Shown: positions 918-1,914 of the stretch, piece after piece
How positions within the stretch are numbered: the first letter of the stretch is position 1
Layout of the letters: each line of letters starts with the position of its first letter
Sequence record: AH001329.2
DNA from: Escherichia phage T4
Length of the DNA: 1,985 nt
Strand: one strand, 5' to 3'
Translations under genes and position numbers: made by a program
The notes under the pieces: generated by a model
The model's database searches: none
Told to the model about the DNA's origin: nothing
The model's input: only the letters and a program-made list of their open reading frames with translations

Positions 918-1914
918 AACAATACCAAGATTTAATTAAAGACATTTTTGAAAATGGTTATGAAACCGATGATCGTACAGGCACAGGAACAATTGCTCTG
1001 TTCGGATCTAAATTACGCTGGGATTTAACTAAAGGTTTTCCTGCGGTAACAACTAAGAAGCTCGCCTGGAAAGCTTGCATTGCTGAGCTAATATGGTTTT
1101 TATCAGGAAGCACAAATGTCAATGATTTACGATTAATTCAACACGATTCGTTAATCCAAGGCAAAACAGTCTGGGATGAAAATTACGAAAATCAAGCAAA
1201 AGATTTAGGATACCATAGCGGTGAACTTGGTCCAATTTATGGAAAACAGTGGCGTGATTTTGGTGGTGTAGACCAAATTATAGAAGTTATTGATCGTATT
1301 AAAAAACTGCCAAATGATAGGCGTCAAATTGTTTCTGCATGGAATCCAGCTGAACTTAAATATATGGCATTACCGCCTTGTCATATGTTCTATCAGTTTA
1401 ATGTGCGTAATGGCTATTTGGATTTGCAGTGGTATCAACGCTCAGTAGATGTTTTCTTGGGTTAATTGAGGCCTGAGTATAANNNNNNNNNNNNNNNNNN
1501 NNNNNNNNNNNNNNNNNNNNNNNNNNNNNNNNNNNNNNNNNNNNNNNNNNNNNNNNNNNNNNNNNNNNNNNNNNNNNNNNNNGACCTTATCTGAACATAA
1601 TGCTACCGTTTAATATTGCGTCATATGCTACGTTAGTTCATATTGTAGCTAAGATGTGTAATCTTATTCCAGGGGATTTGATATTTTCTGGTGGTAATAC
1701 TCATATCTATATGAATCACGTAGAACAATGTAAAGAAATTTTGAGGCGTGAACCTAAAGAGCTTTGTGAGCTGGTAATAAGTGGTCTACCTTATAAATTC
1801 CGATATCTTTCTACTAAAGAACAATTAAAATATGTTCTTAAACTTAGGCCTAAAGATTTCGTTCTTAACAACTATGTATCACACCCTCCTATTAAAGGAA
1901 AGATGGCGGTGTAA
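914..1914 (+). CDS. td: Thymidylate synthase, split gene: join(914..1462, 1603..1914). Exon 1 gives 183 aa and exon 2 gives 103 aa, for a 286-aa spliced product. The six-frame track shows it as two ORFs (914..1465 and 1600..1914)
   Basis: Exon 1 carries canonical ThyA motifs: [41 protein letters not shown], and the active-site Cys in [11 protein letters not shown]. Exon 1 ends ...[10 protein letters not shown], and exon 2 begins LPFNIASYA.... Together these rebuild the universally conserved ThyA block [14 protein letters not shown], which is contiguous in E. coli ThyA. The exon 1 frame meets TAA at 1463-1465 immediately after the Gly codon, and the exon 2 frame resumes at 1603. The final stop is TAA at 1912-1914. 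Confidence 0.93.
1463..1602 (+). ncRNA. Group I self-splicing intron in td; only about 20 nt at each end is visible, and the interior (1483..1582) is N-masked so the true length is unknown
   Basis: The insertion splits a conserved ThyA motif. The 5' exon ends in U (1462) and the intron ends in G (1602), as expected for group I splice sites. A P1 helix can be drawn between exon 1457-1462 (UUGGGU) and the intron internal guide sequence at 1471-1476 (GCCUGA), with the characteristic U.G wobble at the splice site. The start of a P2-like hairpin (GAGUAUAA, 1475-1482) is visible before the N run. The visible ends match my recollection of the T4 td intron termini (UAAUUGAGGCCUGAGUAUAA ... CUGAACAUAAUG). 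Confidence 0.85.

Follow-up and report, generated by a model that had tools for sequence, protein, structure and literature searches.

In the stretch of DNA analysed here (1,985 nt in full, hereafter the window), the thymidylate synthase gene td appears as two ORFs on either side of an interval of 140 bases, most of which are given as N. The question raised by this locus is whether the two ORFs are the exons of a single gene parted by an intron or the pieces of a broken one and, if there is an intron, which one lies under the N's. For self-splicing and for intron homing in bacteria and phages, it is the td intron that served as the founding model. With a probability of roughly 0.97, the window is the frd–td region of phage T4, in which the classical group I intron of 1017 nt splits td after codon 183, its interior being presented as N's.

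A megablast search of the phage collection placed the window on the T4 genome (AF158101.6/NC_000866.4, 146025..143164, reverse strand) with 100 % identity; the other T4 isolates listed reach at most 99.8 %. The 1482 bases that precede the N run and the 403 that follow it are exact substrings of AF158101.6 (1885/1885 visible bases). The annotation of AF158101.6 over this stretch comprises frd.1, frd, td (as a two-piece join), the I-TevI gene and nrdA.2. The genes that flank td in the window are as follows.

22..264, + strand: frd.1, 80 aa (Pfam DUF5417, 115.6 bits; T4 annotation), a neighbour given for context only
336..917, + strand: frd, dihydrofolate reductase, 193 aa (Pfam DHFR_1, 70.3 bits; T4 annotation)
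1935..1985, + strand: start of nrdA.2 (T4 annotation, 3312-3575 of locus L001, mapped on the window), truncated by the window end and given for context only

Between frd and nrdA.2, td is found in two parts.

914..1462, + strand: td exon 1, 183 codons, of which the last is GGT (Gly183); covers positions 1-175 of the Thymidylat_synt profile and is identical to residues 1-183 of 1TIS
1603..1914, + strand: td exon 2, 103 codons and a TAA stop (1912-1914); covers profile positions 176-266 and is identical to residues 184-286 of 1TIS

As the initial annotation had noted, the ThyA block is split between two ORFs of the same orientation, 914..1465 and 1600..1914, both on the + strand. The first encodes 183 aa and ends in a TAA stop at 1463-1465, which are the first three bases of the intron; the second encodes 104 aa and reads M followed by LPFNIASYA. 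Exon 2 itself begins CTA CCG TTT AAT. Joining the exons at 1462|1603 gives a product of 286 aa that agrees with PDB 1TIS chain A at 286/286 residues, matches the Pfam thymidylate synthase family Thymidylat_synt (PF00303) over profile positions 1-266 with 318.6 bits, and aligns with bacterial enzymes in PDB with E values of 1e-71 to 1e-73. The two parts of the Pfam profile abut exactly at the junction (1-175 and 176-266), with neither gap nor overlap. Exon ligation at 1462|1603 gives an intact host gene, as seen in the continuous profile and the identity with 1TIS. 1TIS is T4 thymidylate synthase as crystallised, a single chain of 286 aa; the spliced td mRNA junction and the full-length 286-aa protein, on whose existence the initial annotation had let its interpretation depend, are both in the literature already.

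The junction falls within a stretch of 19 residues that forms the densest block of identity with three bacterial thymidylate synthases, in alignments that were read by eye and without a count. This places the insertion point of the td intron in a highly conserved stretch of the enzyme. The description of the site as the most conserved motif of the protein is borne out as far as conservation is concerned; for the superlative, the comparison with three enzymes is a partial test.

The presence of two ORFs, the first closed by the in-frame stop of 1463-1465, could also be expected of a broken or split td that makes two polypeptides and is never spliced, be it a pseudogene, the product of an assembly gap, or a gene read through a bypass at the protein or translational level. 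The annotations of many relatives, in which thymidylate synthase is entered twice ('x2'), would seem to point the same way, but such labels are what automated annotation would be expected to yield where introns are not modelled. The last three bases of the intron are AUG (window 1600-1602) and stand in frame with exon 2. It is for this reason that 1600-1914 is called by ORF finders as a 'thymidylate synthase' fragment of 104 aa, and the intron-terminal AUG likewise accounts for the two thymidylate synthase CDSs in many of the relatives' annotations. Against a split gene, the crystallised T4 enzyme is a single chain of 286 aa, the same as that obtained from the spliced reading, the reference annotation joins the two td pieces, and a group I core lies inside the interval in T4 and in its alleles (see below). 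The probability left to a split gene is vanishingly small. Since the spliced reading corresponds to the crystallised single chain, two polypeptides, a pseudogene and a bypass were all discarded as explanations.

The interval between the exons of an interrupted td consists of 100 N and 40 visible bases, the latter being nt 1-20 and 998-1017 of the T4 intron.

1457..1476, + strand: P1, exon UUGGGU (1457-1462) with internal guide GCCUGA (1471-1476), and U1462.G1471 at the 5' splice site
1463..1482, + strand: the 20 intron bases visible at the 5' end, nt 1-20 of the intron in T4 (exact match to L001 1963-1982), with the in-frame UAA (1463-1465), the guide sequence and the start of a P2-like hairpin
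1483..1582: 100 consecutive N in place of 977 T4 bases (intron nt 21-997; L001 1983-2959, AF158101.6 145043..144067, complement), a run which hides almost the entire ribozyme core and the I-TevI gene
1583..1602, + strand: the 20 intron bases visible at the 3' end, nt 998-1017 of the intron in T4 (exact match to L001 2960-2979), with the terminal G at 1602

The two visible parts of the window are 977 bases apart in T4 and 100 apart in the window, and the true length of the td intron in AF158101.6 is 1017 nt (L001 1963-2979). We take 1016 nt to be the commonly quoted length of the T4 td intron, as against the 1017 nt counted in AF158101.6. Because the N run alters the length of the sequence, it is probably not a simple in-place masking, and it is best regarded as a placeholder of arbitrary length. 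As 1017 is a multiple of three, the exons share one frame in the T4 genome, whereas they stand in different frames in the window. The interval of 1463-1602 proposed initially has the right boundaries, but its 140 nt are not the size of the intron; the wording 'unmasked sequence' in that proposal indicates that the masking was evidently known. N runs may replace stretches of very different length, and both lengths and reading frames measured across such runs are unreliable.

The visible ends permit the splice sites to be examined directly. The initial annotation had exon 1 ending in U and the interval ending in G, with a junction at 1462|1603, and this is what is found: T at 1462 and G at 1602, the latter followed by CTA CCG TTT of exon 2, with the joined exons equal to 1TIS. 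The proposed alignment with the T4 td intron gives exact matches of the visible ends to intron nt 1-20 and 998-1017. The P1 pairing drawn between 1457-1462 and 1471-1476, with a U.G wobble, also holds at all six positions (U-A, U.G, G.U, G-C, G-C and U.G, the last at the splice site). In the minimum-energy RNA fold of the T4 bases equivalent to window 1451-1500, four of the six P1 pairs are kept, including U1462.G1471, and a P2-like hairpin follows directly after P1. Of 1834 positions in the window, 14 (0.8 %) show a 6-bp pairing like P1 with U.G as its terminal pair, and when the 20 visible bases of the intron are shuffled, a 6-bp pairing of some sort is obtained in 18 % of cases; by itself, the P1 pairing is weak evidence for a group I intron. 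The Rfam alignment of the first helix, which is one base out of register and contains four non-standard pairs, was not used for P1. An in-frame stop just past the 5' junction is usual in such introns (PMC3073962), and the UAA immediately after the td 5' junction agrees with this arrangement.

A search with the Rfam group I intron model (RF00028; gathering threshold, 50 bits) had also been suggested. In the window itself, Rfam at E<=10 returned no intron, only two chance matches to lncRNAs; no intron is matched because the core is masked by the N run, and an empty result is to be expected whenever masked windows are searched with RNA models. The complete T4 locus likewise gave no match to Rfam at the gathering score. 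At an E-value threshold, RF00028 matched nt 739-969 of the T4 intron (L001 2701-2931; 40.3 bits, E 1.3e-8), which is the 3' half only and lies below 50 bits. The confidently aligned part of this match consists of 3' core elements, including the GAUAUAGUCU segment. We attribute the low score to the insertion of a loop of about 750 nt that parts the two halves of the core, since shorter alleles of the same intron pass the threshold.

These alleles were found by searching the phage collection with the spliced td junction.

phage N2: td intron of 254 nt, L003 501-754
phage CE1: td intron of 262 nt, L002 499-760
phages MLP2 and C2-3: td introns of 320 nt each, L006 2164-2483 and L008 1954-2273
phage G28: td intron of 445 nt, L007 1742-2186
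phage SHFML-11: td intron of 1016 nt, L005 2165-3180
phage T4: td intron of 1017 nt, L001 1963-2979

All seven share the same insertion site, with the first 22 nt nearly identical (one change in CE1) and the last 22 nt identical. Identities between alleles were obtained from a prefix/suffix split, MAFFT having placed the large gap wrongly. The CE1 intron is the T4 intron minus nt 94-848 and is identical to it at 258/262 positions, while the introns of N2, MLP2 and C2-3 have 94.5-97.8 % identity with the T4 bases to which they correspond. In N2, a double change from A:T to T:A (T4 intron 919/934) leaves a hairpin of the core paired. The G28 intron is only 83 % identical to the matching T4 bases and is hence less well characterised.

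The four short alleles, which are 94.5-98.5 % identical to T4, score 72.6 (CE1), 73.8 (N2), 66.9 (MLP2) and 73.6 bits (C2-3) against the RF00028 threshold of 50, whereas the introns of G28 (445 nt), SHFML-11 (1016 nt) and T4 (1017 nt) fall below it. At the gathering score the model recovers td alleles of 254-320 nt and misses those with a long loop insertion (at least 445 nt), so the T4 td intron itself would be missed by routine Rfam annotation. The outcome of the covariance-model check is mixed: of the P3-P9 core, nothing is visible in the window, 40.3 bits are obtained in T4, and 66.9-73.8 bits in the short alleles. We take this as placing the td element in the RF00028 family, a probable assignment that is drawn from T4 and its alleles, the window's own core bases being masked. 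Identification of the intron in the window is based on the identity of its flanks with T4 and not on the masked bases.

The existence of alleles of 254, 262, 320, 445 and 1016 nt at the exact td site means that the visible ends cannot discriminate between them, and it could be argued that the N's conceal a td intron that is shortened, endonuclease-less or rearranged, in place of the 1017-nt intron with an intact I-TevI. The bases outside the N run speak against this, as all 1885 visible bases are those of the T4 reference, while the other T4 isolates listed do not exceed 99.8 % identity to the window. MLP2, G28 and C2-3 are only 94.3-95.3 % identical to it and carry extra ORFs around frd. A different allele in the window is accordingly regarded as highly improbable. 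A similarly slight chance is given to hidden bases that depart from T4 while all that surrounds them is identical to T4, such as an intron allele with part of its sequence deleted or a new variant of I-TevI. If there were a variant allele under the N's, it would represent a captured step in the cycle of gain and loss of homing endonucleases.

For the classical T4 intron, the endonuclease gene can be placed exactly. I-TevI is encoded at nt 133-870 of the intron (L001 2095-2832; 245 aa), which in the window falls wholly within the N run, and its product contains GIY-YIG, I-TevI zinc finger and I-TevI DNA-binding domains in Pfam. The text of AF158101.6 describes it as 'DNA endonuclease encoded by group 1A intron in td; GIY-YIG family'. 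In SHFML-11, the intron is one base shorter than that of T4, the difference lying upstream of the I-TevI start (intron nt 132 vs 133). The introns of CE1, N2, MLP2 and C2-3 share with T4 the insertion site, near-identical 5' ends, identical 3' ends and a core with 94.5-98.5 % identity, but lack I-TevI together with its loop (T4 intron nt ~85/98 to 794/848), whereas T4 keeps the full ORF of 245 aa. In effect, the short alleles are the T4 intron without the I-TevI loop. The 445-nt allele of G28 retains an N-terminal I-TevI remnant of 55 aa. The size series of the td alleles suggests a loss of the homing endonuclease seen at several stages, which may have been independent events.

Alleles of td that have no intron at all are also present among the relatives. 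In T2, td is an uninterrupted CDS of 861 nt (...CTTGGT|CTTCCATTT...), and T2 td gave no match to Rfam. Of the 579 records matched in the search with the spliced junction, 382 align with 80 % or more of the query at a single place, and the matches fall in 738 places, 159 more than there are records. On our reading, and as a rough estimate, about a quarter of the records may hold td halves that are too far apart to be joined, as would be expected of a long intron.

The target of the endonuclease is itself visible in exon 1.

1436..1440, + strand: I-TevI cleavage motif CAACG, the nicks falling 23 and 25 nt upstream of the point of insertion

Both the motif and the distances agree with those published for I-TevI (PMC2988022, PMC5009752). 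The suggestion that insertion here reflects intron spread driven by a homing endonuclease therefore fits what is found, namely I-TevI in the masked part, CAACG at 23/25 and an intronless td in T2.

Group I introns follow a standard two-step route of guanosine-initiated transesterification, in which P1 sets the 5' site and the terminal G sets the 3' site. In T4, the td pre-mRNA would fold so that UUGGGU of exon 1 pairs with the guide GCCUGA to form P1, the cleavage site being marked by a U.G wobble. A free guanosine, bound by the core, would then attack after U1462, and the 3'-OH of exon 1 would in turn attack after the terminal G1602, joining GGU to CUA and restoring the 286-aa enzyme. The UAA that forms the first codon of the intron may halt ribosomes on unspliced RNA. 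Of this route, the identity with T4, the exact junction, P1 and the group I core in T4 and the short alleles are observations; the splicing chemistry and the stalling of ribosomes are taken from the literature or inferred. The td intron has been described as self-splicing (PMC2988022, PMC3073962).

Homing, for which the I-TevI domains and the intronless alleles are likewise observed and the process itself is supplied by the literature or by inference, would begin with I-TevI, encoded in a peripheral loop of the masked interior, cutting an intronless td at CAACG, 23/25 nt upstream of the point of insertion. The intron would then be copied into the intronless td as the break is repaired.

Compared with the T4 td intron and I-TevI as known, the window presents the same organism, gene, site, bases and junction, with CAACG at -23/-25, and there is no biological difference. 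A related system is the I-BmoI intron of Bacillus mojavensis thyA, a group I intron with a GIY-YIG endonuclease at the homologous conserved site of thymidylate synthase (PMC5009752). As described there, I-BmoI differs in its host and in its cleavage motif, GCCCG, of which only G5 is critical, as against CAACG for I-TevI (PMC5009752). The initial assessment of the locus as the td intron of T-even phage, and not novel, is upheld by the exact identity with T4, the annotated td join and the description of the intron as group 1A. The td intron in the window is already known; what had been seen in the sequence is confirmed, with the caveat over length, and its interpretation is supported. Its reappearance in T4 sequence is no new finding.

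Scans of the window for promoters and terminators and for repeats yielded nothing above chance. Upstream of the interrupted gene, the td start codon overlaps the TGA stop of frd in the sequence ATGA (window 914-917), an arrangement that could permit translational coupling. In SHFML-11 and MLP2, an ORF of 115 aa stands between frd and td instead, and in C2-3 one of 68 aa. In T4, frd.1 and frd are separated by a spacer of 71 nt (window 265-335); at this site, SHFML-11, MLP2, G28 and C2-3 carry a hypothetical ORF of 81 aa (246 nt).
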